From NCBI GenBank assembly GCA_010093815.1, contig ML996583.1: DNA of 64,000 nucleotides. One strand, written 5' to 3'. Shown here piece after piece: positions 1 through 42,278 of this stretch; the first letter of the stretch is position 1, and each line of letters starts with the position of its first letter. Under the pieces are notes generated by a model that saw only the letters and a program-made list of their open reading frames with translations, did not search any database and was not told the DNA's origin. The position numbers and the translations under genes were made by a program. Source of the DNA: Pseudovirgaria hyperparasitica (lineage: Eukaryota).

Positions 1-157
1 ACGAGTTGAAGGCTGAATATCTTCTCTGGGCTCTATATGAGGAGCCCGGGAATCAAAAGCATTGGCGCGTTCCCGGACCCGAAGGAGCAGTTGTTCAATA
101 GGCACACTATCTATCATACTACGAACCACAGCTCCCCTATGGTCGTATCATAGACCT

Positions 158-1411: not shown

Positions 1412-1839
1412 TCTTCCATCGATTGTCGGTTTGACTGATTTGGTATGCAGCTTAAGCCGAAGTCACAATTTGGATAAATGGCGTACATAAGCCGCTGCTC
1501 CGCGGCATCAACAGCAAACTTGCAACAACTCTCAAAAATAACTTCCAACATCGTCATGTATGTGCTATCCTTAATTCTCTCCGCTTAACCTAATTCGAGA
1601 TAGGTGTCACAACCGAAGTATCACGGTTATATTGATCGTTAAGGGCAGCCCCAGAGACTCTATGAAGTAGTCATCAGCGACTACAGAAACTCTTAGTATG
1701 TGGGACCGGCTAACAACCCAGCAAATAACGAGACTACAAACTATCCGATCCAGCTTTGCAAGCATATTGGGCGCAACATCGGGCCACTGGTCAAGAGATT
1801 GCTCGTAGCAGCTATTGATCTATCACCTTGGCGCAGTCG

Positions 1840-5374: not shown

Positions 5375-6018
5375 TGGCAGAGATCCCTTCGCGGAGAGGG
5401 TCTCTAGAGTGCTATCAGCAACAACACAGCTTAACATAGTATACATATTGCTCGAAGACTAAGAATGGAATCAATGGATACCATTGACTGAGTCCGCTTG
5501 GGATCCTTTGGGCCCACCTGTCCTTGACCCGTCTCCCGAATGTAGCAGAAGGGCAGTGGATCGTGTATGGTGCTAGATGTTGCCGTTTCATTTGGGTAAA
5601 AGCGCAGTACGTGGGGTCCAGGCAGTCAGCCTTAAGCAGGGTCGTGTATCCACCGCCACCGAGGGAATTCCACGGGCTAATCATCAGCTTAGAGAGGTAG
5701 TGCCAGCGAAATTTCCCGATTAGAGACCGACCAGTTTGGGCATAAAAACGAGTCCTGGTATCGGGAACTGAGAATCTCGGGGACTCAAGATACTCACTAA
5801 GAATCCCACCATCCTCCCGAAGATCCAACGGAATTGCTCGAGTCAAGCTCGCAATCCGAGTGGTAACCCGCGGGTAGTCATCGCATGCAGGCCATAGAAG
5901 GACCAGCCATTTAATAAGTGGGCAGTAATCTCAGCTTCCGCTTTCCAGAAATGAAAGCCAACTTGAATTTTGGCTCAGTGAATGCACGACCGGTCTCATT
6001 ACCATCCTCGATTTCATA

Positions 6019-7129: not shown

Positions 7130-7493
7130 GTGCAAGGCTCGGGTAATCTATGGTGTATCATGCATACATAGCATTGGCCCCTTCGTTTAATATCAATATG
7201 CAGCGGAGAGAGTATTGTTGAAAGGTGGATTTGTTCCCAGAGAAAAAAGATTATGCATCCATCGCTGGAGACTCGTAGAATCGGCGGCGTAGTGAGCACT
7301 AGTTACTGCAGTAAGAACACAGTTTTCAACATGGGTTGATCATGATCGCGTTCAAAACGCCAACTTGAACAACCTTGGATCTAAGGCACGCAATTAAGGC
7401 TGACATGGACACCTTAGGTATTATTAGGGCGTGCCTGGTGTGAACCTTAGTGCTTTAACGTCTCGCTCGCGGCTCTTCCAGTAATCCATCGTG

Positions 7494-9641: not shown

Positions 9642-10084
9642 CTCTGTCAGTATTCGGGATATTAATTCTCCCAATTGTAAAGTCTTGAGCGTTAGTCTCG
9701 GCGTTGTGGGAAACGCTTTCGCCCAGGTCGCGATGAGGGAAGCGACGCACTCATTAGGTACCCGTGTCTGACGCATGTCTCTCAACGATGGATGATGCGC
9801 CGTGCATTTCCTAGGCAATGCACCCCTGAAGGCACTCGGGCTCTACATAGAGATCTGCCGCTAAGCTCACGCGAGACTGGCTACATATGGTCTTCCGATG
9901 ATGGCCCAATTAGGCTAGCCTGAATAGACCTTGCAGTTCAGGCGTATAGACCATGCCTTGCCTTTAAGGCGAGGTCAGCAATTATATAACTCTTTTACTT
10001 ACAAGACTATTCTGTATGCTGGTCAAGGTACATCTCCGGCTATTCCAGTCCTCTCGTGAATTCCTCGCATCCTGTCGCTTCACG

Positions 10085-11688
10085 ATGAATACCCATCCTC
10101 ATGTTATTATCATCGGAGCAGGTATTGGCGGCTTGACGACTGCGATAGGTAAGCTATTCAGTTTCTTCCTCAATGTAGCTCTCTCTAACAGGCCCCCAGC
10201 ACTGTGTCAAGTCGGATGTAAGGTCACCATTTTGGAGCAAGCTTCTAGGCTTTCCGAAATTGGAGCAGGTATACAACTTGTAGGCGCAACGTAACTAGCT
10301 TTTTATCCTAACTAATGTCATACGGGCCCCAAACGCTACACGCGTACTTCAAAACCTGGGCGTTCTTGCAGAGGTAACTATCTATGCAAATAAACCCGCC
10401 GGTCTTGTTGTGCGCCGCTACGATGATGATTCAGAGATTGGACCCCGCTCACATAGCGATGGCCTCGACAAAAAATTCGATTCTCCAATGCTAGTCATCG
10501 TGGGTGCGCGCCAGACCAATCGTTTGGAGCTCTGCTGATACTTTCGTAAGCATCGAGCCGACCTTCAAAGAGTACTGTTGAAGGCTGTCCATGCCCAAGG
10601 CGCCCGCCTTCACATGAGCGCTCGTGTCAAAACTGTCGACCCTGATTTCAACGCCAAAGTTGAGCTTGAGACAGGACAACAGTTCGAGGGTGATCTTGTC
10701 GTCGGGGCGGACGGGATAAACAGCCAAGTCAGGGCACAGATGGTAAGATATTGGGAGATCCCAGACGAACTCACAGCGACCGGCGATGCAGCATATAGAG
10801 TCACTATACCGCGGCACAAGCTGCTTGAATGTCCCGGCCTCATACAAGAAATTGATGGCAGAGTCAGCAGTCGGTGGATCGGCCCTCATGGCCATATCAT
10901 GGCATATCCACTCCGTGGCAACGAGCTTTATAATGTGGTCATGGTTCACCGAAATGAAGAGGCTGGACTGGATAAATCAAACATATGGACACGCCGAGGA
11001 CGTATGACGGCTTTATTGAGGTTCTATGGCAGCTGGAGTCCTCTGGTGAATATTCTGGCGAAACAAATCAACACCGAAGGACTCGTGCAGTGGCCATTAG
11101 AGACCCGTCCACATTTGCCAAGCTGGTCCGTCAATCGAATCTGTCTTCTTGGAGACTCAGTCCATGCCATGCTACCATATGTGTACGTGCATTTCTAAAC
11201 GTATTGTCTGCTGGACTCCTTCATAACAAGTTTCGAACAGCGCCCAAGGGGCTGCGCAGGCTATCGAAGATGCCGCTGTTTTAGGCACTTGCCTTTCACA
11301 GATCAGTGATATTCCGCAGGTCCTTTCGATATACGAGCGTGTCCGCAAAGCAAGGGCAGAGTTCATTCAAAACTCTGCTTCTACGATGCGGACAGTCCTA
11401 CATTACGAGGACGGAGTCGATCAGGAGAAACGCGATGCCATAATGCGAGCGCCGAGAATCGCCGGCTGGAAGCACCCGGATCTTTGGGCTGATGCAGAAT
11501 ACCAAAATACCGTTTGGGGTTATGATGTAATTGCGGAGACTCAACGAGAGTGCAGCAAATGTCTAGAACCCCCAAATAACGCAGAGAGGCAAGTGAAAAG
11601 ACGGTCAAGGCAAGTTGAGTACGTAGTAGTCTTCATTCTTGTGCTCTTATTAGAGTGTATGCTTAAATATATCTGGTGGGGCTCCTGA
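10085..11688 (+). CDS. FAD-dependent aromatic monooxygenase (salicylate/hydroxybenzoate hydroxylase family); one non-canonical splice acceptor
   Basis: IIGAGIGGL, EIGAGIQL|APNATRVL, I|HRADL, VVGADGINS, LLGDSVHAMLPYV|AQGAAQAIEDA; introns 10149-10199, 10280-10325 (ends CGG), 10500-10550, 11183-11240; C-terminal hydrophobic tail. Confidence 0.85.
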
Positions 11689-24840: not shown

Positions 24841-27331
24841 ATATGCAAGGGAGGGAAGGCTAGCGGAGTGCACCGGGTGCGGAGATTAAGACGTAACGCT
24901 AACGCGACATCAACCAAGAAGGCATATGCTCAGGGGAAGTTCTGGCCATAACCTGAGTGAGAACGGTTCAAGTTATATATATCTGAGAGAAGGCAAGGGA
25001 CATTGAAGGTATGCACGCCGAACTGACATTCCGAACGCGGTAGATGTTGTTGCCTGTTGACTGCGTCCAAGACTACTGTCTTAGCCCATTATATATATCT
25101 TAGATATGTATACACAGTGACAGCAAAGCCTGGTCTTAGCACAGCTTCATACTTGGTTGTGTATACGTTGTAAGGCGCACTGTGCAGGTGCAGCTGCCCT
25201 ACAGGTGAAACACCACCTCGTGGCTACGATAATTTCACTGTTTGGAACGAATCACCAGGCAGCAGAAACCTTGTCTTGGTCTTTCATCGGTGTATAGATC
25301 GTAAGTCTATGGTGACTATTCTGTTGTAGTCTTCCTTACATGTCCAGATCCCAAACTACCAAACCAGTACCCCTTTACCTTTTACAACAAACTAAGTATA
25401 CTCCATTTCTTCCTTTATCGTCGGTCAACATATAACTATAGTAGGTGCGGTAATGAAACTATGATCATAACCACGACAGAAGGCCACGACAGCCAGGAAT
25501 CCTGACATCGATTCGTGGACTGTTTGGGCGCAGAATCTCCTTATATAAGTAATGCATCCAGTGAGTGACTATAAAGCTAGATTAAGAGCTTCTGTAAAGG
25601 AAGCTTGTCATATTATTGCGCAGAAATGGCGAGAGATCCTTCGCACCATCCTACTGTACCTGCTATGAGGAGACGGTCCCCAGACTATAGTGAACGGCAT
25701 AACCTATGACAATAAGTCTGTCACCATTGTCCATCATGATATTTTTTAGGATTGCGGTCGCTGTGAGCTAGTCCGATAGAAATAAGGTGATTCACCACTC
25801 CATTCATCGCATTGAAGAATATATCGTAATCAACTTTCCATCTGTGAAATCAGGCTTCCAGCTCAAGCATGAAAGGATATCTAACCCGCAAGACAATCCT
25901 ACACCTTTTTGTAATGGCGCTATGACAGTGTATGATGCTCGGTGCGTATCATGCTACCAGACTTTCATTATTCCAGCTCCGGCAAGGAGTGATTCTCGTA
26001 ATATTTCTGTACCGATAAGCTCGTATGGCATGTTTTGGGTCTGCGACAAAGATGCTGCTTCGGATCGAAGTCGAAGTAGTTGTAAGCAACCCACACGAGC
26101 AAATGCCCTTAACGATAATCCTTCAATTCTGGCGACCGCACCTGAATACCGGCCTAGCCGGCTCTGCGAAGCCAAATACGCAGTTAGCCATAGCGAAGTA
26201 AAGCGGTAGCTTTTATTTACCGCCTAATTATGATGCGAGCACACTCTTATCTCTGTAAATGTTTTCACTGTTTCGACGAAAACATATCTGCCTAAGATTA
26301 AGCAAGCTATCATGTTTGCTGCCTTGCAGCATGACGATCATTTAATCGATCTCGCTATATCTAAATGTCATCAGGTTGCGTCGAATCTATTATTAGTTCT
26401 GGCTGTTCCCGCCATGCTACGCGGTGCAAACTATACTAGATAGCAGTTAAGTGGACTCATATATTGACAGCGAACGTGAGGAGACTCCAGCTATACAAGA
26501 TCGGTTGGCTTCGAGGTATTGTCGACCTCATCGAGAATAAATACCAGAAGAAGACGAAGCTCTCAAGAAGTGGACCGGCCTACCGAACCTATCAAGTGTA
26601 TTAGGAATACTGCCTGCAACAGTTGATCCACCGTGCCTCTCTTGACGCTACTGGCTCGCACAAACGTATATTAAGCGTCTACGACCTATTTTGGCTCCCC
26701 TTAGACGTGCTATATACGATGGATACCTCATATCTGTTCATTTACTGCCCTATTACCTACTCTTTGTGTGGCCTGCGATGATAGATAAAGCTCTAAGCTT
26801 TGCTGAGCCATAAGTTAAAGCTCGATGTTACACAGCAGGAGGTCAAACAAAACACATTCGTGGTGTGGTATCGCAGCTTGCCTACCTGATGGTATGTCGA
26901 GCTTTTCCTGTAGGTCATCAGTGCATCTCCGGTCTTGGTTGGCTGATCAAGGTTGACAACTTCCAGTCGCAGCGCCTTACTTGAGTTAGCGTTTGGAGGT
27001 GCTGTTCATTTCTCACAGTTCCCTTTTTTCTACAGTGCGTTGTAGGATCGGCTTCCACTCTCCATACGACCATCTGATAACATTTCTTGCGTCGTGAGTC
27101 TACTTGCTATTCCGCTAGCCTCATACGGTCCAGCGTTGCTATGGCGGCCACGTCCATCATGTAAAACACATTCAGTCAGCCATTTACATTTCATTACATG
27201 CACTTGTGAAGCGGATCCGAAATCATTCGAAAGAAAACCCATCCGATAAGAGTGCTTTGCAAGTAATAAATATCTGCTCTATAAGCCTTCTTGTCCATTT
27301 CCGTAAGTCCCTAGTTTTACGAGGATCTTGA

Positions 27332-30300
27332 TCATCTAAGCCCTGGATGCCGAATGAACATACCATTTGTGTCCGGCGGCAATAGTGGTCTCCACTTAAG
27401 CGCGGCTAAACGCTGCTTGAGATCTATATAGTCCCCAGACGAGGCTACAACACACGTGTACCTAGACAATGTACGTTCGTACATTGCTTTCGCCTTCTCC
27501 GGTCTATATTTTAATAGAAGATCCCCGAAGTTTTGTAAAGTTTTATTAGCCGCTCGATAAGTATCGACGTGGTCGATGTTGATCACATCATCATACCCTT
27601 CCAGCGCTCGTACGTACATCTTCTCCGCTAGCTTTAGCTTTCCTTGGTCTGCATAGAGGCGGCCTAGGTTGTTAACCACGGAGAGTGTCGACGCGTGCTT
27701 CGGTCCAAGTGCCTCCTCGTACCCTTGCAGCGCTCGCGTGTATAAGGTCTCTGCCGCGTCTAGCTTGCCTTGACTAGCGTAGAGGCGACCCAAGTTGTTG
27801 TATGTATTAAGTGTCGACGCGTGCTTCGGTCCTAGAACCTTCACCTTCTCAAGCAATGACTGCTTGTACATTGCTTCTGCCTCGCCAAAGTTGCCCTGGT
27901 CCTTAAGCATGCTCGCGAGGTTGTTTTTCGCTGAACTCGTGTCGGGATGCTCGTGGCCAATAATCCTTTGTCTCCTCTCTAACACATCTCTTTGCATTTC
28001 TATTGCTTTGCTGAGCTCACCCTGATCTTTGTATGAGCTTGCGAGATTGTTCATCGCTGAGATCGTGTGGGGGTGATTGTTACCAAGACTACGTATCCTT
28101 CGGTCCACCACATGAATTCGAATGGCTGTAGATTCTTCGAATTTACCTTGGTCTCTATAGAAACTAGCAAGGTTGTTTAAAGCCGTTATCATATATGGGT
28201 GATCGTTTCCATACAAGCTTTTCGTCTTTGCTAGGACTTCAATTTGCAGCTCCACTGCCGAGGAATACCGGGCTTGTTTCCAGAATATCGTTGCAAGGTT
28301 CGCCATGCTTGTCAACGTAGAGGGATGTTGATCACCAAGTGTCCTCTGTTGTGCTGCCAACACACAGACTGCGATATTCTCCGCCTCAATCCAGCGTCCT
28401 TGATTCCAAAGTGTTGTGGCGAAGTTTGAAACACAGCTTAAAGTGTCAGGATGGGTTTCGCCAAGTGTCCGCTTCCTTATCTCTATTACCTGTACTTCTA
28501 GCCGCCCAGCTTCCGTCCATCGTCCTTGGCTTCGGTATGTGGACGCCAGGTTGGCTTTGATAGTCAGAGTGTCCGGATGCTTCTTACCTAGTGTTCGCTC
28601 CCTTATTCTCATCACCTGAACCTCTAGCTGCTCTGCCTCGTTCCATCGTCCCTGGTCCCAGTATGTGGACGCGAGGTTGGTGGTGAAAGCTAGCGTGTCC
28701 GGATGCTCATCGCCCAGCACTCGCTTACTCGTCTCCACCACCTGTACCTCTAGCTGCTCTGCTTCGGCCCATCGTCCTTGGCTTCGGTACGTGGACGCGA
28801 GGTTGGTCATGATAGACAACGTGTCCGGATGCTCATCGCCCAGCACTCGCTTACTCGTCTCCACCACCTGTACCTCTAGCTGCTCTGCTTCGACCCATCG
28901 CCCTTGGCTTCGGTACGTGGACGCGAGGTTGGTCATGATAGACAACGTGTCCGGATGCTCATCGCCCAGCACTCGCTTACTCGTCTCCACCACCTGTATC
29001 TCTAGCTGCTCTGCTTCGACCCATCGCCGTTGGCTTCGGTACGTGGACGCCAGGTCGGCTTTAACAGTCAAAGTGACCGGATGCTCATCACCAAGCGTTC
29101 TCTGTTGCTCGTCCAGGACCTCGTTGAAAGAGTCTTCAGCCTCATTATACCTACCGTCGTTGAGAAGACACAGACCAACATTTCTAGCTAGTTTCGCTCG
29201 ATAGTCGTTATTATCGATCACGAGCCGCTGCCTGAGTGTGTACATTGCGCTCGATAGATACGGCCTCCATATATCCCTTTTGTTGTGATTGATACTTGGA
29301 AATTGATCTGCCAAATGGGCTATAGTTTTCTCAGTCCATGTGCGTAGAAGGTCGTGCTTGGACAGCCAGTTCCTTGTGGCTAGGTGTACCAAAGGATGCA
29401 CATCGAGCGATTGATTCATATTTCTCCATGCCACAAAGGAGTAGGCATGTAGTATCCCAATAGCGTCAAGATGCTGTTTTCGCGAAGCGCCGCATGGGAG
29501 TAACGTCAGCGGAATGTCTTTCGGTTCGATGCAGGCCATAAAGGATAAGTAGTCTGCAGCGGTAGGATTATCTCTCCTGATGTGCTCGAAAGAAATGAGC
29601 CAGGTAGTAGCTATCGTGTTGTGGGTGCCTGGATACCTTCCCTCGTCATCGAAACCTTCACTGAGCAATGCCATTGTAGTTTCGTCCTGCTCTTTAAAGA
29701 GTTTTAGATAGGCGGCAATCGTGATGCCATTGGTGTTGATATACGCCGACGCCTGGACGATAGCAAGCGGAAGGTTGGCTAACGCTTCTAATAGAGTCTC
29801 TTCGATAGCGAAGTCAGAGGTGAGCTGTGGTTCGGCGAGACGCATCCTTAGGAGTCGCAGAGATACTTGTGGCTGAAGTTCTCCTATTTTGATGACATTC
29901 TGTTGCGATAGCTTCACAGCTACCTTCCTGTTTCTCGTCGTGAAAAGAATGCTGCCTTTGGGATTGCTCGGCAAGTGATGTACCAATCGATCCTCTGTCC
30001 CCTTAGTCTGGTGAAAGGCCCACATATGCATGTCGTCAATATTATCGAGCACGAGCAACCACGGATTCGTACTCTCCTGGTTCAGGTTGGCGTGCACCAG
30101 ACGTATGACGTCCGCACTTTTCTCATCTCGACCAGGGATGTCAAGCTTCTCTGCGATCGCTCGGTATGACTGTAGAAGACTCTCTGAATCGGTCGCATCC
30201 GTCCAGAAGACTGAGAAATCTTTGCGTTCATCCATCATCCGATAAGCAAACTCCACAGCTATCTGTGTCTTGCCTATACCGCCAAGCCCGACGACCGCAA

Positions 30301-31224
30301 TCTGTGAGGTATGGCTGCGCTTGGACAGTAGTGATTGCAGCCTCAAAATTTCTTCTTCTCTTCCAACGAAATGCGGATTGCGTTCGAACGGCATGACGGA
30401 CACAGCACAAGTTCCTAAAGCTTGTCAACTTGAAGAAAGCAATTTGTATCGCAAAAGCCGGTCTTACCATCGTGTTGCGGCCACATGCCTAATCTAGCAA
30501 TACCCTTCTCAAGACGGTGGAATGCGCTTTCTTCGCCCTCTCCGTATATGAGCGGCATGTAGACATTACAGATACCAAGCATAGAGTACGCTTTATCCTC
30601 CGGTAGAGTGGTCTGCCGGTCCCTAATCCAGCTTAAGCGCTCTCCAAAACTAAAGCTATCCAGATTCCCTGAGCGGAGAGCTTCTGGATCTATACCAGTC
30701 GCGGTATAGATAGTCGGTAGAAGCGACGCTTTATCGCCTAACCTAATACCCTTCCGGGAAAAGAACTCAATCCGACGAGGTGCGAGCAGCTCTTGGACCG
30801 TCCACCCGCGACTGAACCAGCGGCTATTTCTGAACTGTGTATTCCATGCAGTATGCGAAGAGTGTGCCTTCGGAGTATCAACATCAACATCTGTGAGGTA
30901 GACATAGCATCGCTCTGCCTGCTGATACCAGCGATACATGGAGTTGATGCTCTCGGTAAGCTCGTTGACATTGAATTTGTCTATGCAACATGTATCGATC
31001 CAGAAATATTGGAGACCGTCATTTCTCGCCTGGTTGCTGCAGAACCGAAGCTTTTCCATACCTTCTTTAGCCGTCCCAAGACCCCTGGACACATCGTTGT
31101 AGGTAACTTCCTCATCACTCTCGTGAGCCCAGGTGTGCGAAAGGATTGCGTAGGCAGGCGTGTCGGTTCCAGAAAACGAGGTGAGCTTGACACTACCATC
31201 GTCGGAAAGCTTCAGAAGTCGCAT
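27332..31224 (-). CDS. Fungal NLR: HET effector domain - NB-ARC - TPR repeats (about 1279 aa)
   Basis: MRLL…YAILSHTW…YFWIDTCCIDK…WFSRGWTVQELLAP (HET); intron 30415-30467 splices in frame (QHD-G-TCAVSVMPFERN); GLGGIGKT P-loop, LLVLDNID, LPLAIVQA, DVHPLVH; array of 42-aa TPRs (LGDEHPDTL). Confidence 0.93.
28539..29100 (-). repeat. 126-bp tandem repeats encoding near-identical TPR units
   Basis: GTGGACGC[G/C]AGGT recurs at 28539, 28665, 28791, 28917 and 29043 (period 126); the central units differ at only a few bases. Confidence 0.95.
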
Positions 31225-31692
31225 TTTCAGTTCTAAAAGATTGAGTTATAGTCTTGCTGAACAATCTAGGTAAAGGTTATGCTGCATGACAATAGAGTTC
31301 ACTGCAGATTGTAGAGTAGAGCGGGACTTGAATGAGTTCTGGCGCGGGTGAGATCATTGAGGTCCAAGCGTCTCAGGACTCCAATAACCAATACTGAAAG
31401 GCATCGGGAATGCGGGGTAGTCACATCCATGTTGCAAAACTGACCTCCAGTGTGTCCTTGTGCAGACTCCAACACGATGGTAATGCGTTTGCCGATTACT
31501 TTGTCAGGGTAGGAGTTTGAATTGCTACTGCAGAATACGATTGCTAGCGGATCGAAGCAGCTTGACGACTGAGCTTCATCAGTCTTGTTGTGTCATGTGT
31601 ATATGTTTGTGATCTTCGTTTGTTTGAAAAGCAGTATGATTGTACTGATGCCTGCTGGCAGGTGTAGTAAATAAGAAGACCTAATCGTACCG

Positions 31693-34107
31693 ATGGAACA
31701 CCTTGGCGAAGGTATTGTACACTGCGTTCCACGCGTACCATATATTGTCCAAGAGGGCGAGCAGTATGACGGGAAGGGTTTCCTTGAATTCCCGGTCCGC
31801 TGCGGATGGAATCTTGGAAAGAACGGAAAATTTAGTGTCCCACCTAAGTCGAAATTCCGCCCTGGCCCTCTAGGATCTTTGGCCGGACTTCTCCAGGCCT
31901 GGCTCTTTTTTGGATTGCTCTCCGAAGTATTAGGGAGCAAACAAGTCGTTGTCCTGCAACATTTCATCACCATAGATGAGCACGGAAAGCAATATCTCAC
32001 CACGGAAAAGCTACCAGGTTACCTGGAACAGTGGAAGAACTCCGTAGATAAGGATACATCACGGAATTTCGCCACATTGATACGAATACACGTCGCCCTC
32101 AAGAAAGCCCATGACCTGGTATCTCGTTTTTGTTCTGTCAAACCTAGGAATGAGAGCTCTACTTGGCCTGTGGACGAGCGAATATCCCTTTCTTTCATGG
32201 TTCTTGGCGAAACCCTTACACACGCCTATAACATGATCGTCAAAGCTACGTCAATCCATTCACATGATATGAACGGGTTCAATCTTGGCAGCTGGGGTGA
32301 GAGCGCAGTCATCAATAGAAGATTCACCGAAGAAGGGTGGTGTCCTTACACCGTCCATACCCTAACAGGCATAATTGGTCAACGGAACAGCGGGTTACTA
32401 CTCGCCCTAAGTGTCTCCCACCCAAAAGCTCTTGCATTAAAACATGACCGTTGCTCGCGCAATGAATGCATTGCACGTAAGTCGGAAAATTTCGGAGGTA
32501 GATGTTTTAAATTAGGAGGCGACTGCACCTGTGAGCACATTGGTCCTAAGGTCGGAGAAGTGCTTGCAGTCCTGAGAAAGGGCAAGATCCCACTCTTGCA
32601 ATATGATAGTGGAAGGCAGGTTCTAGAAGTGGTGGAATACCGAAGCGGTCTCAAGTATTTTATTATTTCGCACGTCTGTACAGATGGATTTGGCAGCGAT
32701 ACCAACTCTATGTCACTTTGTCGCATTAAGTATCTCCTGGGAATTTTTGGGAAAGTGACAACGACGGAATCAGCTTGGTGGTATGACAACATCTCGAGCC
32801 AGCTGCATACACCATACCTCTTCTGGATTGATACCCTGGCAATCCCTTTCGAAAAGGCTCATCGGCTCGAACGACGAGTCGCTATTCGATCGATGGATGA
32901 ATTCTATCAAAACGCTACATGCGCCATCGTTCTCGATGCTGGAATAATGGAGCAGGAAATTGGCCGTACTTTCGCCTCAACCGCTATGAGAATTATGACA
33001 AGTACCTGGATTACTAGACTTTGGACTCTACAAGAAGCTTTCCTAAGTAGACGACTCCTTTTCAAGTTTAAAGATGGGATCATTGGAATTGACGAGCTGG
33101 AACGCATGGACAAAATGACCGTTGTCTCACCGCTCCCCTCTATTGCCCAGTTATACCTTAAATGTTTGCTGGGTCACCAAAAGTCCTTTATTTGGGGAGA
33201 AGATGCTGGAACTATCAACGGCAATCTCATAGGATCGATATGGAAGGCGCTTCAGTCGAGAACGACTACCCATGCGCAACATGAGCCACTCGCTATCGCC
33301 ATTCTATTACGTCTGCCCACTGCTTCGCTAGATGAGTCAATTGACATAGAGCCAGCAACCAGAGTAGGTAATCGAGACAATCATGATCGGATGGTGAAGC
33401 TTCTGAACCTTTGCTCGAATCAGACCTTTCCTGCGGGCATGGCATTCTTGGGTGGGCCAAAAGTTGACGTCCAAGGGTACGGATGGGCCCCACTGTCATG
33501 GATGCAGACACAGGGACGCACCCGTGTAGAGGCAATGAATGCACCGTCATTCGATGCAATGATCACTAGCGAAGGACTGCGGTTCAGAAGTGCCGGGTTC
33601 ATGATTCATCCACTATGCGCTCAGTCAGAAATTTTGCATGGAAGCACCCTAGTTCTGACACTAATCGAAGCTGCTTTCGATAAAATAACGATCGAGGCCA
33701 TCGACACGGTGGGACCTGAGTATTGCTATCCTAGTGATGCAAATCTCGCAATCGTTCTACAGCAGGAAAGGCCAGAAGATGCACAGCAGGTTGCTTTGCT
33801 AGTGATAATCTATAAGACCATGGACAACACCTTGTATTCATCCATTATCAAACGCGTATGGGTCTCGATAGGACAGAGAAACTCTGAGACTGATCAATTA
33901 GATGCTTTTCCAAGCACATCAGATACGATTTACGCTATCCCAACGAAACAAGTCCGGCGCTGGTGCTTAGATGGGCCACGCCGTTTTTTGAGCACGTCAA
34001 AGCACGACAGCTCTAGCAGAGGTGCCTTCGCATGGTCCGACATCCGAAAATGGGCCTGGAAGGAGCCACAGATCTGGGCTGAAGAAGAAGCGCTTGATGG
34101 CGGTTAG
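31693..34107 (+). CDS. Stand-alone HET-domain protein (804 aa, central HET domain)
   Basis: LLQAWLFFGLL, GWCP, HDRCS…C N-terminal motifs; YFIISHVCTDGFG, FWIDTLAIP, AIRSMDEFYQNA…VLD, WITRLWTLQEA, GYGWAPLSW; intronless. Confidence 0.85.
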   Translation: MEHLGEGIVHCVPRVPYIVQEGEQYDGKGFLEFPVRCGWNLGKNGKFSVPPKSKFRPGPLGSLAGLLQAWLFFGLLSEVLGSKQVVVLQHFITIDEHGKQYLTTEKLPGYLEQWKNSVDKDTSRNFATLIRIHVALKKAHDLVSRFCSVKPRNESSTWPVDERISLSFMVLGETLTHAYNMIVKATSIHSHDMNGFNLGSWGESAVINRRFTEEGWCPYTVHTLTGIIGQRNSGLLLALSVSHPKALALKHDRCSRNECIARKSENFGGRCFKLGGDCTCEHIGPKVGEVLAVLRKGKIPLLQYDSGRQVLEVVEYRSGLKYFIISHVCTDGFGSDTNSMSLCRIKYLLGIFGKVTTTESAWWYDNISSQLHTPYLFWIDTLAIPFEKAHRLERRVAIRSMDEFYQNATCAIVLDAGIMEQEIGRTFASTAMRIMTSTWITRLWTLQEAFLSRRLLFKFKDGIIGIDELERMDKMTVVSPLPSIAQLYLKCLLGHQKSFIWGEDAGTINGNLIGSIWKALQSRTTTHAQHEPLAIAILLRLPTASLDESIDIEPATRVGNRDNHDRMVKLLNLCSNQTFPAGMAFLGGPKVDVQGYGWAPLSWMQTQGRTRVEAMNAPSFDAMITSEGLRFRSAGFMIHPLCAQSEILHGSTLVLTLIEAAFDKITIEAIDTVGPEYCYPSDANLAIVLQQERPEDAQQVALLVIIYKTMDNTLYSSIIKRVWVSIGQRNSETDQLDAFPSTSDTIYAIPTKQVRRWCLDGPRRFLSTSKHDSSSRGAFAWSDIRKWAWKEPQIWAEEEALDGG

Positions 34108-34179
34108 TTCTCATTCCCTGCTGCCACGTGTTGGTGTCAGGCACATCATTCTCGCTGAAGTCAGTAATGTGACTGTCAT

Positions 34180-35230
34180 CGGTGTGTAGGCGAGTGCTGC
34201 ACGGGTACGAAGGGACAGACTTCCTATCAATCAGTTCAGTTCAACTTTGGGCATCTAGTTGAACTGGACTGAAGTACTTCAATCCTAGCCGTCGTAGAAT
34301 TGGATTGAACTGTCAATCCTAGTAGTAGAATTGAAGTTGAACTGGACTGGACTGAAGAATATTAGTAAGATTAGCTAAAAGTCTTAAAGATAGAAAAAAT
34401 TCATAGTATTTTGAGGCTATATATCTATATTACCTATATAGTAATTCTTAATATAAGTAAGTAATAGGCTAAAAGGAGACTATTTAGGTTATTAATATAT
34501 AGCTATTAGTAGAGAGACTCTATGTGGTTTTTTATATATGAGAGTGATGGATAAGTCACGTGATAGTCACGTGATTATCACGTGGCTTCACTTATTCCAT
34601 CACATGATGGCTCACGTGATATAGTCCATGATCGCTTACCTAGCAGGAGTCACATGCTTATTATGTGATCACGTCACATGACACATCACGTGACATTGAG
34701 TCACGTGACATCTTCCTCATGAATCTACCCGAATCACCTAACCTCAAGAGGATATCTACTAATATACCTATCTATATATAACTTCAGTTCAACTCAACTA
34801 TTAGCAACTCAATCCTACCCTAGAATTGAATTGGACTGAAGATCCAACCCTTGGCAAGAGGCCTCAGTTGAACTGGACTGAGTCAATTCTGGAGAGGCAG
34901 AATTGAAGTTGGACTGATTGATAGGAACTCTGCGAAGGGATAGAAGAGATACTTGTGCTGAAGTACACGTCAATACTTGACACGGTCGGCAACCAGGGCA
35001 TTTTCTGCGTAACCTAAGGCAAGCTAGACGAGGCAGAGAAGATATATATGAAGGATATGAGGAGGCACTCGGTACTGAGCTCGTCAATACGTATATCTCC
35101 GCCCTTAGTATATCAGGTAATATAGGAGACTTCGTCTCCCACAATAGGCGCAAGCACGCAAGATAAATGTACATAAGAGCTTTATCTGGATAAACGGTTG
35201 TCCTTGGTGCTGCACCTCTCGGCCGGCATT
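34180..35230 (+). pseudogene. Decayed TPR (NLR C-terminal) coding relic, interrupted by the hAT-type element
   Basis: Removing the element and one TSD gives RRVLHGYEGIEEILVLKYTSILDTVGNQG…*GKLDEAEKIY, then after a shift EGYEEALGTELVNTYISAL; compare ALQGYEEALGPKHASTLSVVNNLG…QGKLKLAEKMY…VDTYRAA in the neighbouring NLR. Confidence 0.7.
34216..34932. mobile_element. Non-autonomous hAT-type DNA transposon (MITE-like, 717 bp)
   Basis: TIRs CAGACTTCCTATCAATCAGT / CAGAGTTCCTATCAATCAGT (19 of 20 match); exact 8-bp TSD CGAAGGGA at 34208-34215 and 34933-34940; subterminal AACTGGACTG repeats; no transposase ORF; TpA-rich core. Confidence 0.92.
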
Positions 35231-36042: not shown

Positions 36043-37305
36043 TATCCTTTTGGTTTTACGCCGAATATACCCACGTAGAATTCTTTTTATACTTCTAGCT
36101 AAGAAGGCTCAACATTAGGTTAAAAATGATCTAGTAATGTAAAGAGACGTTATTATAGATCAGTGCCTAGCTAGAGAGAGAGGTACGAGCCATTAGAATA
36201 AAATATCATTATAGATCTATCTATCCATATCACGTTACTACGGGACCGGCCGTAGCCTCTATGAATGCTCTAACGTCCCCTTTACTCCACGAACCTTCGA
36301 AACCAACGACGCATAGTCTTTCAACTAAGTTCGTAGTTTACATTAACTAGAGTGTCGATGGGAGGGAGGCTAAAGCAACGATCTAGACCGCTAAAAGCCG
36401 CCCTTTCATTCGCCCGATTAGCGCAGACAAGATCCCAGCTGTACGCAATTCATTGCTGCCATCCCACAATTTCTTCATCGCTTTACTGTGCGTATCACGT
36501 CTCCCACACGATTTTCGTCCTCTTGTAAAGTGGGAGGAAACTATAAGCATTCCTAACATGGCCAGCGTCGGTTGTTGACTGCCGGGAAGTGATGGCTGAG
36601 AGTCTACTTTTATTAGCTTGTATATAGATATAGAAAAATAATGAAATCATTCTCATCCCGAGGTTTCATTAGTTAAGCACGTATCTTACTAGTCTATATG
36701 GATAGCTTGGTTTGTGACTTGTAACAGTATTGCCAAGCCGGGCACGTGCCATGTCTGAGCATTCCTCACCCGTTCACTCGTTCCTCAGCCGAATTGAGCC
36801 TGAGTTCATGCCACGCCAACGTTTCAATATGCCATCCCTGTCTACCAACGAACATACATAGGATAGCGGCTGACTTGCAGCTAGGACCAACTGACAGTGA
36901 CACGGACTTGAGTGGCCCACAGTCTACAGTGCTCGAGAAGATTATGCCATCCCGGGAACGCCGTAATCACAATGTTGTTTGAAAACGCTATGCGGGCTAT
37001 GTCACTGGTCATCGAGCTCCACAGTGGCACGACATTCACTCCTGACATGCACGAAAACGATCCCACGCCGTGTCGGGTGGTCTGCTAGAATTCCATAATC
37101 CTTGGTATCATGCTGTAGCCCCCCCCCTCCTTCCTCACGGCGAAATTATTAACGCCGTCGGCGACAGCAGTGACACACTTCAGGCTCAAGCACATTCCGA
37201 GTGCCACAATAACAGAAGCTTTCCGTCCGTGAACCTCGAGAAATCTCGTCGATGTTCTCCACTTCGATCTTTGTGTCCACGTTCGTCGCCTTCTCGCGCC
37301 TTGAT

Positions 37306-39488
37306 ATGTGTCCACGCTTCTTATGCCTTCTCCTCGTGGACGTATTCATTTCCTGTCCGTTCGTTAATGCGATATCCGTGAAGAGCAACATATTGGTGAT
37401 AGCCCAGAACGACAATACACTATCCACGGCGGATGCTGTCCTGAAAGGATACGGGATTCCATACACCAACGAGCTGATAGCCACATCGACCGACAGTCTC
37501 CCTAGTCTCAATGACTCCGCGACCAGTGGCAATTATGGAGGTTTTATCGTCCATGGCACCGCCCTGAGTACTGGACAGCTGCAACAGATCTACAGTTACC
37601 AAGCAGCGTTTGGTGTTCGAATGGTCCGATGGGATGTCGTGCCCACAGCAGAGTTTGGAATGGCAGAGGCACGTAGTGGCTGCTGCAACTTAGGGACAGA
37701 ACAGTTGGTCTCCATCACCGATACTACGTTCTTTCCCACGGCTGGGTACAAGACCGGAGCCGGCATTACAACAGAACAACTGTGGCATACACCAGGAACG
37801 ATTGCAAACTCCTCGATTGCTACAGAGGTGGCACAGTTCGCCAGTGCTGGAACCTTCAAGACTTCTACCACCGCAGCAGTGGTCAATAAGATTGGAAACA
37901 GAGAGCAGCTGGTCTGGTTTATGCCCTTCGAGGCCGCATGGTCCGTCACTTCGCATATCCTAATGCATTCCTGGGTTCACTTCTTGACCCGGGGAATCTA
38001 CACCGGCTTCAGACGCGTCAACCTTGGCACCCAAGTCGACGACGTCCATCTAGTAACAGGCCTATATTCACCCAAGGGCTCAACTTTCCGGCTGCGCGCC
38101 CAAGATCTCGAGATACACAAGACATGGCTTCCGACCATCATCTCCAAGATGAACCCAGGATCCAACTTCTACATCGAACTAGCTCACAACGGCAACGGCA
38201 ACGTTGCAAACGCCTCCTCCCTCAACTCGAGAACATGCAGTCCAGGCGCCATCACCTACACACCCAACCCCGAGACGACGGTAGAGTTCGTCAAGCCCCC
38301 AGGCACAGGAACAAACGTCTGGCCCAGCAGCCCAACATCCTTCTCCTGGACGACGCAATGCCTCGCCCTCGACACAATGGAGCAATGGTTCGCCGCGGCC
38401 GCCAACCTCAACACCTTCGCCCACCTCTCCCACACCTTCACCCACCTCTCCCTCAACAACGCCACCTACGCCGACACCGCCCGCGAAATCGCCTTCAACA
38501 AGGCCTGGCTCACCGCCTCCGGCATCGCCAGCGCAACACACTTCTCCCCAAACGGCCTCGTGCCCCCCGCCATCACAGGCCTCCACAACCTCGACGCCCT
38601 CCAAGCCTGGCTCGACAACGGCATCTCCTCCGCCGTCGGCGACAACACCCGCACAAGCCTCCTCAACACCCAAAACGAACACTGGCGTAAGCAATCCCCC
38701 TTAACCACACACAAACATACATCCCTAACCAATCCCCACCCCAGCACTCCTCCTCACCGCCCCAGCCCCCTTCACCATCATCCCCCGCTGGGCCACAAAC
38801 ATCTACTTCAACTGCGACCTGCCCGCCTGCATCGAGGTCGAGTACCGCGACGCCTCGGGCGGCACGGCAGCCACATTTGCACAGGTGCTCGACATCGAGC
38901 GCGAGACGAACGTGCGGCACCTGTTTGCGCTGCGGCGCGACCCGTTCATGTTCCATCAGGCGAACATGCGTGCCGTGGACGTGGCGGGCGGGAAGAGCCT
39001 GTTGATGACGTGGATTGAGACTGTGGTGGGGGAGTTTGTGCGCATGTAGGTCTTCTCCCTCCCCCCTTTTTTTGTTTCCCTTCCCCCCCCCCCCTTTTTT
39101 TACCGCTCACGTCGTTCTCATTTGCTGAGAGGGATGCTGATTGACTGACTGACCGTGTGTAAACAGAGTATCCTGGCCCATTCTCACGCTCACTCACGAC
39201 GCCCTTGCGCAGGCCTTCCTCGCTCGGCGCACGCGCGACATGTGTGAGCCCTCGTTGGTGTATAATCTGAATGCCGCGGGCAACGCCATCGAGAGCGTGA
39301 CGGTGTCGGCTACGAACATGAATTGCGCTAGTCCGATCCCGGTCTCACTACCAGGAGATGTGGTAAGTCGCGGGACGGCGACGGCGGAGCAGGTTGGGAG
39401 CGACCCGTTGACACTGTGGGTGCAGCTGGCAGGCACAGCGCAGACATTTGTGCTGACGAGCAGCGTACCCGTCGTTCGAGGCTCTTGA
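37306..39488 (+). CDS. Agd3-like secreted polysaccharide (galactosaminogalactan-type) deacetylase
   Basis: Signal peptide; GNYGGFIV, TQVDDVHL, HNGNGN, HLSHTFTH, PPAITGLHN, VGDNTR, PRWATNIYFNCD, DPFMFHQANMR; introns 38687-38744 and 39046-39166 splice in frame. Confidence 0.85.
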
Positions 39489-40002
39489 ATAGACTCTGGC
39501 AGAAAAGCGGTACATATACTATGGTGTCTCAAGTCACACAGTAGCACATAATATAACTGTCGAAGTTCAACTTCATTCTACTACATCTGTTCTCTCTTCC
39601 AGCCCTTGAACCCAATTTTCTCCTCAATACGAGTTACAAGGTCTATATCGCCCTGTACGAGCGTAAAATAAGGTGAATAAGGCTAAAAACCAAACGCAAG
39701 TCAACAACAACCGCACATTAAAGGAGAGACTTGTGGAAGTCCACCAGCAAGACACCATGTCATAACATGCTTGGCGCTGTCGCGGCGCTATGCGGGTATG
39801 CAACCAAAGAAAGTGAGACGTCTTAAGCAAAGTGTTAGGAGTTATAGAGATAGCAGTAAAATGCCAAGGTGGTAGTACTAAACATGACAAGGAGAAGATC
39901 GCTCAATCAGCAGATAGGAACCGGGTATGCACAGTTGGAACCTTTTTTCCGTCGCGCCTGTATTCACACGTTCACGTTGGAGTCGTTATAAAGACGCAAG
40001 TC

Positions 40003-42278
40003 CTAGTAGGCCTGGCCTCGAAAGCCGCCTTGCGGTGGTCCCATCTCGATGTCGGGCAACCGTGGGACGCGTGTTGCTGGTGGACTGATGCTCCTGTGTG
40101 AACCCCGACCACCAAAGCTTGCGGCTTCATCAAGTAGGCCACGGCGCGTCTCGCTTGGGTTGCGAGTATGACGATCGTGGTCATGGTCACGGTATGACGT
40201 ATCAAGATGGTCGACCGAGTCGTAGCCGTTGTGGTTTAGAGGAGCAGCGGACACCATGGGATGACGGCTGTCGTCATGGCCTTTGTACTCGGTCGTGTCC
40301 ATAAGGAGAGAGTTGCGCGCATCGAGAGGAGTGAGGTTGTCGAGATCACGGTTGAGTTTTTCTATACTGGGTTAGTATTGTCCTGATAATAACAATGTTA
40401 ATACATACCGGCCTCCTTTCTCTTCTTCCTGTGTGGGTTGTCCTTGCAGCACATAATGATGGCATTGACTGCAATGAGGATCGCAAGAGCACCTGTCAAT
40501 GTGGACTGGACAACAATCAAAACAACGCCGGTAACGGTTTGAGTGGTTTGGGAAAGACCAAGCTCCTCAACAAAGACCAGGATGCAGACGACAGACAGTA
40601 CACGAACAACCTGGATAAAGATGTTGATCCAGTTGCCAGACTTTAGAGTATATGGACGAGACCACAAGAGAAGACCTAGCAGTAGGGACTCAATGATGAT
40701 CTGACCACCAGTTTGGACAAGTCCGTGGCCGTTGGCACCTGCAATAACACAGCCCTTGGCAAACATGTAAATGATTGCGGGAACGAAGATCCACCAGTAG
40801 CTCTTCTTGTAGCTGTCATAAAACAAGCTGTACTTGATCCATGTGTCTTTGTTCTCGTACAAGCCGGACACGTCGCCTTCAGACCTCTTGTACTTGTTTG
40901 CAAGCTGGTAGATGCGGAACGTGAAGAATCCGAGGACCGCGGTAAACATAGCGAGGGTGACGCCGGCTAGTGTCTTTGCTGCCCAGGAATCGCCATTGGT
41001 GAATTGGTAGACACAGTACAAAACCCACACGCCGTAAAGGATAAGAATCAAGTTGGTGATAGTCTTGGCCACGAGCCACCAGTACCGTTTCCTGAAGCCA
41101 GTGAGGCCTTTGGGGAACGTGCCAAAGAGAGCCCAAGTCTCGAGAATGACTTTGAATAGCAGTATGCCGACGATAATGGCACCAACAACACAGGCAAAAA
41201 CCAAGAGGATGGTCATAAAGGTGTTGGCTTGTGGGATAGTAAGCGCTTCGACGTAGCCCTGTATGTTGGCAACCAAGTGTTGGTTCTTTCCTTCGCTTTC
41301 TTGAGCACCGGCGTCAGTGTTGTTGTCGGAACCGACTTGTAGATCGTCTCTGCCAAACAGAGACAGCGAGTCGAGGCTGCGCTTGCTCACCGTGTTCTTT
41401 GTGTATACTAGTGTAGAGTTTCGGAGGTAGGCCACGCTGTCTTCAGTAAGATTACCACCAGTCTTTGCACGGAAGTTGTCGATACTTGTCTGCAGACCGT
41501 CCCAAGTGACCAGACCCGAGCTGAAGGCAAAGTTCCGGCTGAAACTTTGATAGACCTGAGGGTACTTGACCGACATCATGCCGTTCAGAGCAATGCCCTG
41601 GAACCATCCCATAGTCTCACCGAATGTAGGACTCGGCGTAGGAGTACCCGGGTTGCCCGCTGCACCCAGGGCGGTCAGACCGGAGAGAACAAGTGCGGCT
41701 CCAGCCATACCTGCGGTGACATAGGACACCGCGGCAACATCGAAACTCTTGCCATTGTTGACTGTGGATTGGATACATGAGAGAATTTCACCACTATCCT
41801 TAGTCTTTAATTCAAGTGTTGCCATTCCATCGAGGTTAGGAACGGTGAAAGCGATGGCAGGGATCTTGTTTAAGTATTCTTCAGGAATGCTCTGAATGCC
41901 GCTGGCTGAGAAATGCCCCTGTGGAACTGTAGTAAAGTTAGTTTGGATAGGCGTTTAGTTCAATAGAGGCTTACTTGGACACATTTGATCCACCTTGTTC
42001 GCCTCGTCACAAGGGTCAAAGTCTTTCTTATAAACCTCTTTACCATATGCAGTCACGATGATGGTACCCGTGACCTTTTGTTCCTTCAGACTGGTACCAG
42101 CGACGTCGAAGTTGACGACGTTTGCACCTTTGCTGTACTCGATGTTGACCTTCTGGACACTGACGTCTGTATTGGCAGCACAGTTGCTGAAGCCCTCGGT
42201 CCTGAGAACATCGTCTGCAACTGCAGTAGAGGCCAATAAGAGCGTAGAGCCCAGTAGTGAGGATACCGTTATCCTCAT
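40003..42278 (-). CDS. FLC/TRP-like (Pkd2/spray family) membrane protein
   Basis: Signal peptide, ML-like N-domain (DPCD…QMCP), GWFQGIALNGMMSVKYPQVYQSFSRNFAFS, many TM helices, cytosolic tail RDLDNLTPLDARNSLL; introns 41927-41974 and 40362-40408. Confidence 0.88.

Follow-up and report, generated by a model that had tools for sequence, protein, structure and literature searches.

A divergent gene pair and its shared spacer

The locus lies in a 64,000-nucleotide stretch of a Pseudovirgaria hyperparasitica contig, referred to here as the window, and consists of two genes arranged head-to-head. Gene A (27332-31224, minus strand) encodes a HET-NB-ARC-TPR receptor of 1279 aa and gene B (31693-34107, plus strand) a stand-alone HET protein of 804 aa that belongs to a large family (Table 1). 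Both start codons given in the first-pass annotation, at 31224 and 31693, and the 468-bp intergenic distance were found again in the sequence. The open reading frames called are 30415-31224 (minus, 269 aa), 27332-30394 (minus, 1020 aa) and 31693-34107 (plus, 804 aa), the 804- and 1020-codon frames being far beyond chance expectation. The same annotation had described both ORFs as intact. This stands for gene B, a single open frame, and with a qualification for gene A, whose two exons are joined over a 53-nt intron. The intron is skipped in transcript contigs of both runs (joint 30413>30467, CT..AC on the plus strand), and the intron-free product has the same length as a public protein with 100% identity to the 440 residues used in the search.

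Transcript contigs from one sample show expression and splicing of both genes. In run X2 the contig of gene A stops at 31305 and that of gene B starts at 31427, leaving about 120 bp between the ends, while in run X1 a single contig bridges both genes. A bidirectional promoter is probably present within the spacer, around 31306-31426.

Table 1. Features of the gene A/gene B locus (window coordinates)
Feature	Position	Strand	Description
Gene A exon 2 (with stop codon)	27332..30414	-	NB-ARC and TPR; frame join checked; covered by transcript contigs
Gene A TPR array	27626..29137	-	12 units, exact 42-aa period
Gene A NB-ARC	29756..30358	-	PF00931, 42.6 bits (cut-off 23.5), aa 13-213 of exon 2
Gene A intron	30415..30467	-	53 nt, GT..AG, GTAAGA...TTTAG
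Gene A exon 1	30468..31224	-	N-terminal HET domain; Pfam HET 52.3 bits; model pLDDT 90
Shared spacer	31225..31692	.	468 bp between start codons; both 5' leaders inside
Gene B 5'-leader intron	31605..31661	+	57 nt, GT..AG; joint in contigs of both runs
Gene B CDS	31693..34107	+	804 aa, single exon; alignable with homologues over its whole length, starting at MEHL
Gene B N-terminal extension	31693..32637	+	about aa 1-315, mostly helical
Gene B HET core	32638..33102	+	about aa 316-470; from Pfam, invariant columns and BLASTP against gene A HET
Gene B HET motifs	32668-32679; 32821-32835; 33022-33036	+	SHVC (aa 326-329); FWIDT; WTLQE (aa 444-448)
Gene B C-terminal region	33103..33987	+	about aa 471-765, helical, then beta-rich (strands aa 622-759)

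The two proteins and their HET domains

The HET-NB-ARC-TPR architecture proposed for gene A was borne out, all three domains being found with Pfam, HET and NB-ARC above their cut-offs. The HET domain (PF06985, cut-off 22.5) matches over aa 25-117 and carries the blocks SHTW (aa 29-32, 31129-31140), FWIDTCCID and GWTVQE, with WTVQE at aa 141-145 (30790-30804); its glutamate, E145, is nearly invariant across 35 aligned sequences. The Walker A motif of the NB-ARC domain is GLGGIGKT (aa 36 of exon 2), and the TPR array reaches 496 bits with TPR_10 in 13 stretches. Within the TPR array the DNA forms a tandem repeat (28488-29096; period 126, 4.8 copies, 85% matches). Pairwise identities among TPR units 2-4 (126 aa) reach 95, 86 and 83%, which places them at the threshold of high internal repeat conservation defined by Dyrka 2014 (PMC4986451), more than 85% identity across 100 aa or more. 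The 42-aa units appear in part highly alike, a property which that study links to repeat shuffling and diversification. Relatives number 2430 at E<=0.001 among 8000 candidates and, set beside the HET-NB-ARC-TPR and HET-NACHT-WD fungal NLRs (HET-E/D/R), gene A shares exactly the HET-NB-ARC-TPR architecture. By itself, gene A is an ordinary member of the fungal NLRs; the novelty is its paired neighbour, gene B.

Gene B has a confidently predicted structure (pLDDT 77, pTM 0.81). Its N-terminal extension of about 320 aa matches no known family and is a conserved feature of the gene B family. The extension had been noted as bearing Cys and His residues, and three of these, H251, C254 and C259 (32443-32469), are invariant in 28/28 aligned sequences. 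The C-terminal region bears a GxGWAPxSW motif. The Pfam HET match reaches 26.9 bits (cut-off 22.5) over aa 373-415 only, and no single stretch passes alone; PF06985 is nevertheless found in most of the 120 gene B homologues listed, and the blocks SHVx-DG-G, FWIDTL and RLWTLQE are invariant or nearly so in the family alignment. E448 is invariant in all 28 sequences. No NB-ARC, NACHT or AAA match was obtained with gene B at E<=0.01 (Pfam).

The gene B protein is also the most deviant of the 28. It departs at 23 of the 120 columns where at least 90% of the 27 homologues agree (0-13 for the homologues themselves), including four conserved tryptophans (W193M, W329C, W522S and W664K) and three conserved prolines. 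On these alignments, its divergence would fit relaxed constraint as well as a new function.

Both HET domains keep the glutamate of the W-T-x-Q-E motif (WTVQE in gene A, WTLQE in gene B), as reported in the first pass, and they do belong to visibly different subtypes, SHTW and SHVC. The two are distant, with 33% identity over 89 aa (BLASTP, E 3e-8). This glutamate is said to match a functionally relevant glutamate of TIR domains (Wojciechowski 2022). The description of HET as TIR-related agrees with the literature, and a fold search with the predicted gene A HET model appears to agree with it weakly: of the 50 matches listed, 21 belong to TIR domains and 7 to nucleoside 2-deoxyribosyltransferases, the TIR entries scoring Z 4-6, below the caution line of the tool (Z 8). 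The best TIR match is the SARM1 TIR (Z 6.0, rmsd 3.3, 97 aligned residues). With Foldseek the same model gave no match at E<=0.001, and fold searches with the complete gene B model brought no informative result. PMC10890737 and a review describe the way in which HET acts as not established.

Head-to-head pairing in relatives of gene B

A profile of the gene B family retrieved 80 metagenome loci which fall into 53 clusters, 27 of them with at least 3 kb of upstream DNA. The comparison loci are metagenome contigs, all from distant relatives, whose family members share 23-38% identity with gene B. In 11 of the 27 non-redundant loci the first large ORF upstream is encoded on the opposite strand, with TPR_10 or TPR_12 repeats (Pfam). 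The window itself shows the same arrangement, the TPR array of gene A belonging to the opposite-strand gene immediately upstream of gene B. An unbiased local TPR scan of every ORF of at least 50 aa recovered 8 of the 11 paired loci; L002 excepted, none of its TPR matches shares the strand of the focal gene, and no TPR gene was found upstream on the same strand. L002 is a partial locus, 37% identical to gene B, in which a TPR_10 ORF is divergent from the family gene. As a control, TPR matches were found downstream in 2 (L064 and L002) of the 23 clusters that extend 3 kb or more on that side.

Pairing follows the family tree. All nine informative loci of the gene B branch are TPR-paired, compared with 0/13 in the other main branch. 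The TPR label requires 2 changes on the tree against a mean of 8.9 when labels are shuffled, and none of 500 shuffles was as low. Gene B falls in a group of ten (SH-aLRT 93) whose other nine members are all TPR-paired, and a FastTree of 150 rows agrees with this (support 0.887). Gene B has the longest branch of this group (1.37, the other nine ranging from 0.36 to 1.21), and an AU test (p 0.141, lnL difference 17.2) fails to reject a tree in which it joins the unpaired branch. Its position is supported without being decisive.

Four of the paired loci (L005, L044, L051 and L063) also have a conserved downstream gene in common, with 43-50% identity. Since the paired loci are not independent, as the 2 changes and the common downstream gene indicate, part of the pairing signal may be plain inherited synteny. 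This third gene is on the plus strand in L005 and on the minus strand in the other three, while the pair is head-to-head throughout. A second HET-family gene occurs within 10 kb in L022, L027, L050/L077, L059 and L070.

The partners have varied architectures: an unknown N-terminus followed by TPR, TPR with ankyrin, ankyrin-TPR-NACHT, ankyrin-TPR-HeLo and, in the window, HET-NB-ARC-TPR. They are often without a recognisable nucleotide-binding domain. Orientation and TPR are constant although the other domains vary, and what the partners have in common is the TPR array; neither HET nor NB-ARC is a shared feature. The DNA upstream of the focal gene was searched for these domains in 14 loci, including all 11 paired ones. 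Even at relaxed thresholds this search revealed no NB-ARC in the upstream region and, in the partner ORFs and the gap adjoining the shared spacer, no HET of the gene A type. A weak HET-like match in L009 (999-1403) and a marginal one in L030 are both located beyond the partner gene. Outside the TPR array gene A has no homology to the other partners. Within it, gene A is 22-27% identical to partners from the gene B branch and 35-44% identical to those of L002, L022 and L079. Its presence as the partner here may reflect replacement or coincidence.

The first-pass annotation had asked whether orthologues stay paired across genomes. For relatives of gene B the outcome is partly positive, and of a kind not foreseen: a head-to-head TPR gene is present in 11/27 loci and in 9/9 of the gene B branch, but in the loci searched no NB-ARC or HET of the gene A type was found in the partner.

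A candidate sensor/effector cassette and its alternatives

Genes A and B probably act as one unit, because relatives of gene B adjoin TPR genes in the same way. We consider that they form a conserved divergent two-gene cassette composed of a TPR sensor and a HET effector, and give this reading a probability of about one half. In such a cassette one short shared promoter would drive both genes, and the two proteins would therefore be made together. The TPR array would be the sensing or binding part. The gene B protein would either be held by this array as a client, in the manner of a HET effector under guard or restraint, or be a second executor switched on upon receptor assembly. Cell death or signalling would then proceed via the HET domains by a hypothetical TIR-like enzymatic route. 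The gene models, their expression, the family memberships and the recurring head-to-head HET/TPR order in relatives are observed; a physical or genetic interaction between A and B, a direction of control and a biochemical activity are presumed in this scheme. More tentatively, many Pezizomycotina might possess an undescribed split immune module in which a TIR-like HET effector with a His/Cys-bearing extension is always divergent from a TPR sensor, often TPR-ankyrin, the sensor slot being occupied in Pseudovirgaria by a HET-NB-ARC-TPR receptor. If so, the sensor may have no nucleotide-binding domain and this would be an NLR-like sensor/executor system working without a NOD. Pseudovirgaria would have a two-HET circuit, with the receptor TPR array holding or reading the gene B protein.

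The proposal of a functionally linked two-gene module gains support from the recurrent head-to-head pairing, but HET-HET contact as its general basis does not. That contact would imply a mixed TIR-like assembly of the two HET domains, in which the receptor would switch on the gene B protein or be held in check by it. The core blocks and glutamate kept in both proteins and the TIR entries among the fold matches are consistent with such an assembly in Pseudovirgaria, but the fold scores are under the caution line and the identity between the two domains is low. As no HET of the gene A type was found in the partners of the 11 paired relatives, contact between HET domains cannot explain why pairing is kept in general, and we regard it as improbable here. 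A different possibility is that A and B are uncoupled neighbours, both from large and rapidly evolving families of the immune type which collect in the same variable parts of the genome, their order being due to chance or to a persisting shared promoter. HET genes are indeed numerous (114 PF06985 entries over two mycoparasite genomes together; about 117 per Sordariales genome, PMC10890737), and their genomic distribution is described in a review as non-random. The additional HET-family genes close to several loci, the restriction of the likeness between gene A and other partners to TPR repeats, the AU result and the wider synteny in part of the paired clade all point the same way. Against it, a divergent TPR gene lies directly upstream in 11/27 loci, compared with TPR matches downstream in 2/23, and never on the same strand upstream, pairing tracks the family tree, and orientation is constant despite changing partner domains and a third syntenic gene which flips. 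Uncoupled neighbours seem unlikely, although less so than HET-HET contact.

The divergence of gene B raises the question of whether it is a decaying or retired copy, a leftover of an effector that once belonged to a pair and has lost its function, although the shared promoter still drives its transcription. Its changed conserved columns, more than in any other of the 28 sequences, its long branch and its low Pfam score would suit a relic. The 804-codon frame is fully open, the transcript is spliced, the structural model is confident and 66 invariant columns, which include FWIDTL, RLWTLQE and H251/C254/C259, are kept (as they are by construction), so that decay appears very improbable.

The cassette reading can be compared with several known systems. 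In plants, sensor/helper NLR pairs are in inverted tandem with a shared promoter region, as at the A/B locus, but both partners are NLRs (PMC12258605). The analogy drawn in the first pass fails because gene B has no nucleotide-binding domain (Pfam), a defining point. In Sordariales just 13 of 225 two-NLR clusters are head-to-head, and the authors of that study conclude that fungi have not converged on plant-type NLR pairs (PMC12258605). NWD2/HET-S is a fungal two-gene unit of receptor and death effector (Wojciechowski 2022). In clusters of this type an NLR gene adjoins a separate cell-death effector gene, as here (Daskalov 2012; Wojciechowski 2022), and the two genes serve one pathway (Wojciechowski 2022). 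As described, the NLR carries at its N-terminus a short amyloid motif with a counterpart at the C-terminus of the effector, a pore-forming HeLo protein, whereas gene A has a full HET and its neighbour is a HET protein. A short signalling motif of this type was considered for gene A and rejected, its N-terminus being a complete HET from residue 1. The NWD2/HET-S type also has an NLR, a point in which the often NOD-less partners of gene B relatives differ.

The het-B locus of Podospora anserina offers another likeness. There Bh (HET with a lectin fold) adjoins Bp (PII-like). The two are reported to cluster in 28 of 31 taxa, in varying orientation, and the HET part is presumed to act as executor while recognition is ascribed to its partner (PMC10890737). 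Both systems place a stand-alone HET protein beside a non-HET partner gene, with clustering conserved across taxa. They differ in that the partner in the gene B family is a TPR protein or an NLR rather than PII-like, in the constant head-to-head orientation of the gene B family loci, and in the long N-terminal extension of gene B, which Bh lacks by its description (PMC10890737).

Gene structure and transcription of the divergent pair

In the rust-hyperparasitic dothideomycete Pseudovirgaria hyperparasitica, genes A and B diverge from start codons 468 bp apart. Both this spacing and the three ORFs placed by the first-pass annotation at 27332-31224 (minus strand) and 31693-34107 (plus strand) were confirmed in the sequence. 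The two minus-strand ORFs belong to a single gene, gene A, in which removal of a 53-nt intron (30415-30467, GTAAGA...TTTAG) gives an in-frame join of 1279 codons. Its product corresponds to a public 1279-aa protein, with 100% identity across the 440 residues searched and the record title "kinesin light chain 3". A word-indexed protein search returned this record; for gene B it gave neither an exact nor a near-exact match (best 39%). The gene B sequence is present letter for letter in the ESM Atlas.

Transcript contigs from two runs (X1 and X2), both from one sample of one study, were placed on positions 27000-34400. They omit the predicted 53-nt stretch of gene A (ends CT..AC on the plus strand, equivalent to GT..AG for gene A) and also 57 nt at 31605-31661 (GT..AG, plus strand), an intron in the gene B 5' leader. 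Since they skip both stretches, the contigs are cDNA-derived, and genes A and B are both transcribed and spliced. The contigs of run X2 are separate, that of gene A reaching 31305 and that of gene B starting at 31427, and run X1 yields one contig that spans both genes. The spacer fits a short bidirectional promoter, for contigs from a single sample that fix neither transcript ends nor levels. Nine loose letters at 31305 in one contig, considered as an upstream exon, have one match in the window (57124), which is at chance level. No direct or inverted repeats were found flanking the pair.

Coordinates of the genes of the pair, of two partner ORFs and of a third gene found at paired loci
Feature	Location	Coordinates	Strand	Description
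Gene A exon 1 ORF	window	30415-31224	-	269 aa
Gene A exon 2 ORF	window	27332-30394	-	1020 aa
Gene B ORF	window	31693-34107	+	804 aa
Partner ORF	L022	4401-9500	-	ankyrin and TPR first; NACHT aa 1211-1380, Walker A at 1230
Partner ORF	L079	4221-9692	-	ankyrin and TPR first; HeLo domain aa 1560-1759
Third gene	L005	13642-15264	+	no Pfam family
Third gene	L044	14426-15745	-	no Pfam family
Third gene	L051	8149-9507	-	no Pfam family
Third gene	L063	13247-14932	-	no Pfam family

Domain content of gene A and of the gene B family

Gene A is an ordinary member of the well-described HET-NB-ARC-TPR architecture. Its Pfam matches are to HET (52.3 bits, cut-off 22.5), NB-ARC (42.6 bits, cut-off 23.5) and TPR_10 (496 bits, 13 stretches); the Walker A motif is GLGGIGKT and the protein closest to its NB-ARC region is 48% identical. 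The TPR array includes 12 units with an exact 42-aa period, of which units 2-4 are mutually 83-95% identical, and appears at the DNA level as a 126-bp repeat (4.8 copies, 85% matches). Near-identical repeat units in fungal NLRs have been linked to repeat shuffling in the sections consulted of Dyrka et al. 2014 (PMC4986451). The relationship of HET to TIR domains, as stated in the first-pass annotation, agrees with the remote HET-TIR homology described in the parts of the published work consulted. Foldseek gave no match to the gene A HET model (pLDDT 90) at E<=0.001. Among the 50 matches listed by an independent fold search, 21 were TIR entries and 7 nucleoside 2-deoxyribosyltransferases; the best TIR among them, SARM1 (Z 6.0, rmsd 3.3, 97 aligned), lies under the tool's caution line and the fold-search evidence is therefore counted as weak.

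In gene B, Pfam recognises a HET fragment only (26.9 bits, aa 373-415). The protein nevertheless belongs to a large family whose members are about 800-900 aa long and align across 86-98% of its length. A protein search gave 218 matches at E<=0.001 among 8000 candidates (best 39% identity), mainly from lichen-forming and other Pezizomycotina (Letrouitia, Xanthoria, Endocarpon, Xylographa, Bacidia and others), and an exhaustive search gave 490 cluster representatives at E<=1e-30 and 4043 at E<=0.001. No longer fused forms (1408-4020 aa) were found, which the tool rates as weak evidence. An alignment of 28 family sequences has 66 invariant columns. These include H251, C254 and C259 in the N-terminal extension, the H327-V328, D331-G332 and N338 block (SHVC in gene B versus SHVW in the family), FWIDTL, and RLWTLQE with E448. 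The gene B model (pLDDT 77, pTM 0.81) has a helical N-terminal part, a HET core and a C-terminal part which is helical then beta-rich. Structure and sequence searches gave no match of the N-terminal part to a solved structure or known family, the whole model had no Foldseek match in the PDB at E<=0.001, and the family profile had none among PDB sequences at E<=1; a VIA-wide fold search with the whole model returned generic helical matches only (aa 20-235, Z <=6.5).

None of the other 27 sequences deviates as far as gene B, which departs from the family at 23 of the 120 columns where at least 90% of its 27 homologues agree (0-13 for the homologues themselves); the changes include W193M, W329C, W522S and W664K. 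These substitutions fit either rapid co-adaptation with a new type of partner or relaxed constraint. The HET domains of genes A and B (33% identity over 89 aa) are distant paralogues rather than recent duplicates.

Upstream neighbours of gene B relatives

A divergent HET/TPR arrangement recurs among relatives of gene B. Family members were collected from 80 metagenome loci (handles beginning with L), which gave 53 clusters once near-identical loci were collapsed; 27 of these have at least 3 kb of upstream sequence. Pfam was run on 105 of the 142 flank ORFs (at least 150 aa, within 5 kb of family genes). The nearest large upstream ORF lies on the opposite strand and carries TPR_10 or TPR_12 in 11 of the 27 clusters (L003, L005, L009, L012, L016, L022, L030, L044, L051, L063 and L079). 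One further cluster (L071) has an opposite-strand upstream ORF with sub-threshold TPR only, one (L027) has a divergent HET gene, and 14 have none of these upstream neighbour types. An unbiased scan with a 42-aa TPR profile, covering all ORFs from 50 aa upwards, recovered 8 of the 11 paired clusters, and all matches, L002 excepted, were on the strand opposite to the focal family gene. In L002, a partial and oddly assembled locus, a TPR_10 ORF and the family gene (37% identity to gene B) are again divergently oriented. TPR repeats occur downstream of the family gene in 2 of the 23 clusters with at least 3 kb of downstream flank (L064 and L002). The gap between partner ORF and family gene is 0.26-1.8 kb in relatives versus 468 bp in the window. 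A first scan of the 80 loci with gene A NB-ARC and HET profiles, in which an NB-ARC neighbour appeared in L064 only, downstream and convergent, had suggested that the pairing was not conserved. This was overturned by the Pfam analysis of flank ORFs, since it is TPR and not NB-ARC that the partners have in common.

The partners have TPR repeats in common and little else. Those of L005, L009, L016, L030, L044, L051 and L063 are mutually homologous, with a Pfam-unmatched N-terminal domain, a long linker and then TPR; the complete 1338-aa L009 ORF has no Walker A motif. The partners of L003 and L012 carry TPR followed by ankyrin repeats, and those of L022 and L079 carry ankyrin-TPR followed by NACHT and HeLo respectively. 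This order, with repeats first and NACHT or HeLo towards the C-terminus, is unusual for NLR-like proteins. Four partner N-termini gave no Pfam match at E<=0.01; alignment A3 shows a VHG...AHG/SxG pattern which, by analogy with sesB-like domains, we take to be a candidate hydrolase-like motif. Similarity between gene A and the partners is confined to the repeats (22-27% identity for gene B's branch, 35-44% for L002, L022 and L079). The expectation that relatives stay paired is partly borne out, for a divergent TPR gene but not for the rest of gene A. Upstream of the focal gene, even relaxed thresholds gave no NB-ARC at any of 14 loci searched (all 11 paired ones among them), and neither the partner ORFs nor the gap contained a gene-A-type HET. 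The upstream HET-like matches are confined to weak ones farther out than the partner (L009 999-1403, and marginally in L030). At L009 the corresponding ORF (3-1610, minus strand; tblastn E 2e-5 against the gene A HET) is on the same strand as the TPR partner, giving the order HET / TPR / HET.

When the 27 informative loci and gene B are placed on a maximum-likelihood tree, gene B groups with nine loci, every one of them TPR-paired (ten members in all, SH-aLRT 93). L022 and L079 form a second paired group, and TPR neighbours are absent from the rest of the tree, a branch of 13 members (0/13). The TPR label changes twice on this tree versus a mean of 8.9 after shuffling, with none of 500 shuffles as low. 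In a FastTree analysis of 150 rows with named homologues, gene B falls inside a 123-member group (support 0.887) which holds all nine paired loci of its branch and no unpaired informative locus; grouping of gene B with the unpaired branch was not rejected by the AU test (p 0.141). The nine paired loci are not independent events. Four of them (L005, L044, L051 and L063) have in common a third, downstream gene, whose conservation between loci (43-50% identity) exceeds that of the HET genes, so that inherited synteny contributes to the pairing signal. The window lacks an equivalent of this gene.

On the unpaired branch, head-to-head HET-HET pairs without TPR are present at two loci: L027 has a canonical HET neighbour (7233-8942, minus strand; PF06985, 100 bits), and L059 has three family copies, two of them divergent and about 200 bp apart (7829-9734, minus strand; 9938-11293, plus strand). 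L045 (993-2506, minus strand) and L050 (8034-9392, minus strand), on the same branch, have a common divergent upstream neighbour without Pfam family (53% identity); conserved partners of their own may thus exist in further branches of the family. Downstream of the L060 family gene, an ORF joins a NACHT_N fragment and a PIF1-type helicase (4656-6728, minus strand).

Interpretation and surroundings of the pair

A genome is taken here to hold about ten thousand genes. Two mycoparasite genomes together have 114 PF06985 entries in the supplement to Haridas et al. 2020. Head-to-head HET-HET neighbours would be expected by chance well under once per genome, yet such a pair is not absurd and the adjacency of two HET genes is therefore unpersuasive by itself; in our judgement it is the recurrent TPR neighbour that persuades. 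We infer that genes A and B work together as a functional cassette: sensing or binding would fall to the TPR array, with the gene B HET protein as its client or executor. The two-component immune or allorecognition module of the first-pass annotation included possible HET-HET contact. Most partners are without HET and NB-ARC, so this contact cannot be what keeps the pair together, but it may still operate at the window locus, where the partner has its own HET. A complex prediction for the gene A HET (aa 1-245) with gene B (aa 1-745), run without controls, scored 0.02 and is uninformative either way.

HET is among the most abundant and variable domains of filamentous fungi, and in the portions of the sources consulted (PMC10890737 among them) its mode of action is described as unknown and most HET genes as having no assigned role. 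Fungal two-gene receptor/effector units are also described there (NWD2/HET-S, Bh/Bp, gasdermin/protease), and in a study of Sordariales few of the two-NLR clusters (13 of 225) were head-to-head pairs (PMC12258605). No description of HET/TPR pairing was found in the open-access literature and bioRxiv, mainly at the level of titles and abstract openings. Gene A is of a known kind, as are two-gene receptor/effector units, and the HET/TPR pairing is the new element. If this HET subfamily keeps a divergent TPR neighbour, it would give the HET field a defined partner to test and a simple genetic unit in which to study the restraint and release of a stand-alone HET domain. It would also add a further class of fungal two-gene immune cassette beside NLR/amyloid-effector, gasdermin/protease and Bh/Bp.

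The 3-kb stretches on either side of the pair (about 24.9-27.3 kb and 34.1-37.0 kb) are ORF-poor and of lower G+C (0.41-0.47). Just past the gene B stop, contig loose ends and raised summed depth at 34216-34340 could mark a short repeated element or the end of another transcript. Further out, 4052-24223 encodes FAD-binding oxidases, a Zn2Cys6 transcription factor, a UbiA prenyltransferase, a cupin and a short-chain dehydrogenase, and looks like a secondary-metabolite-type cluster. On the other side, 37213-41954 includes an Agd3-type deacetylase with a CBM87 domain (324 and 231 bits), which adjoins a TRP-like channel gene.
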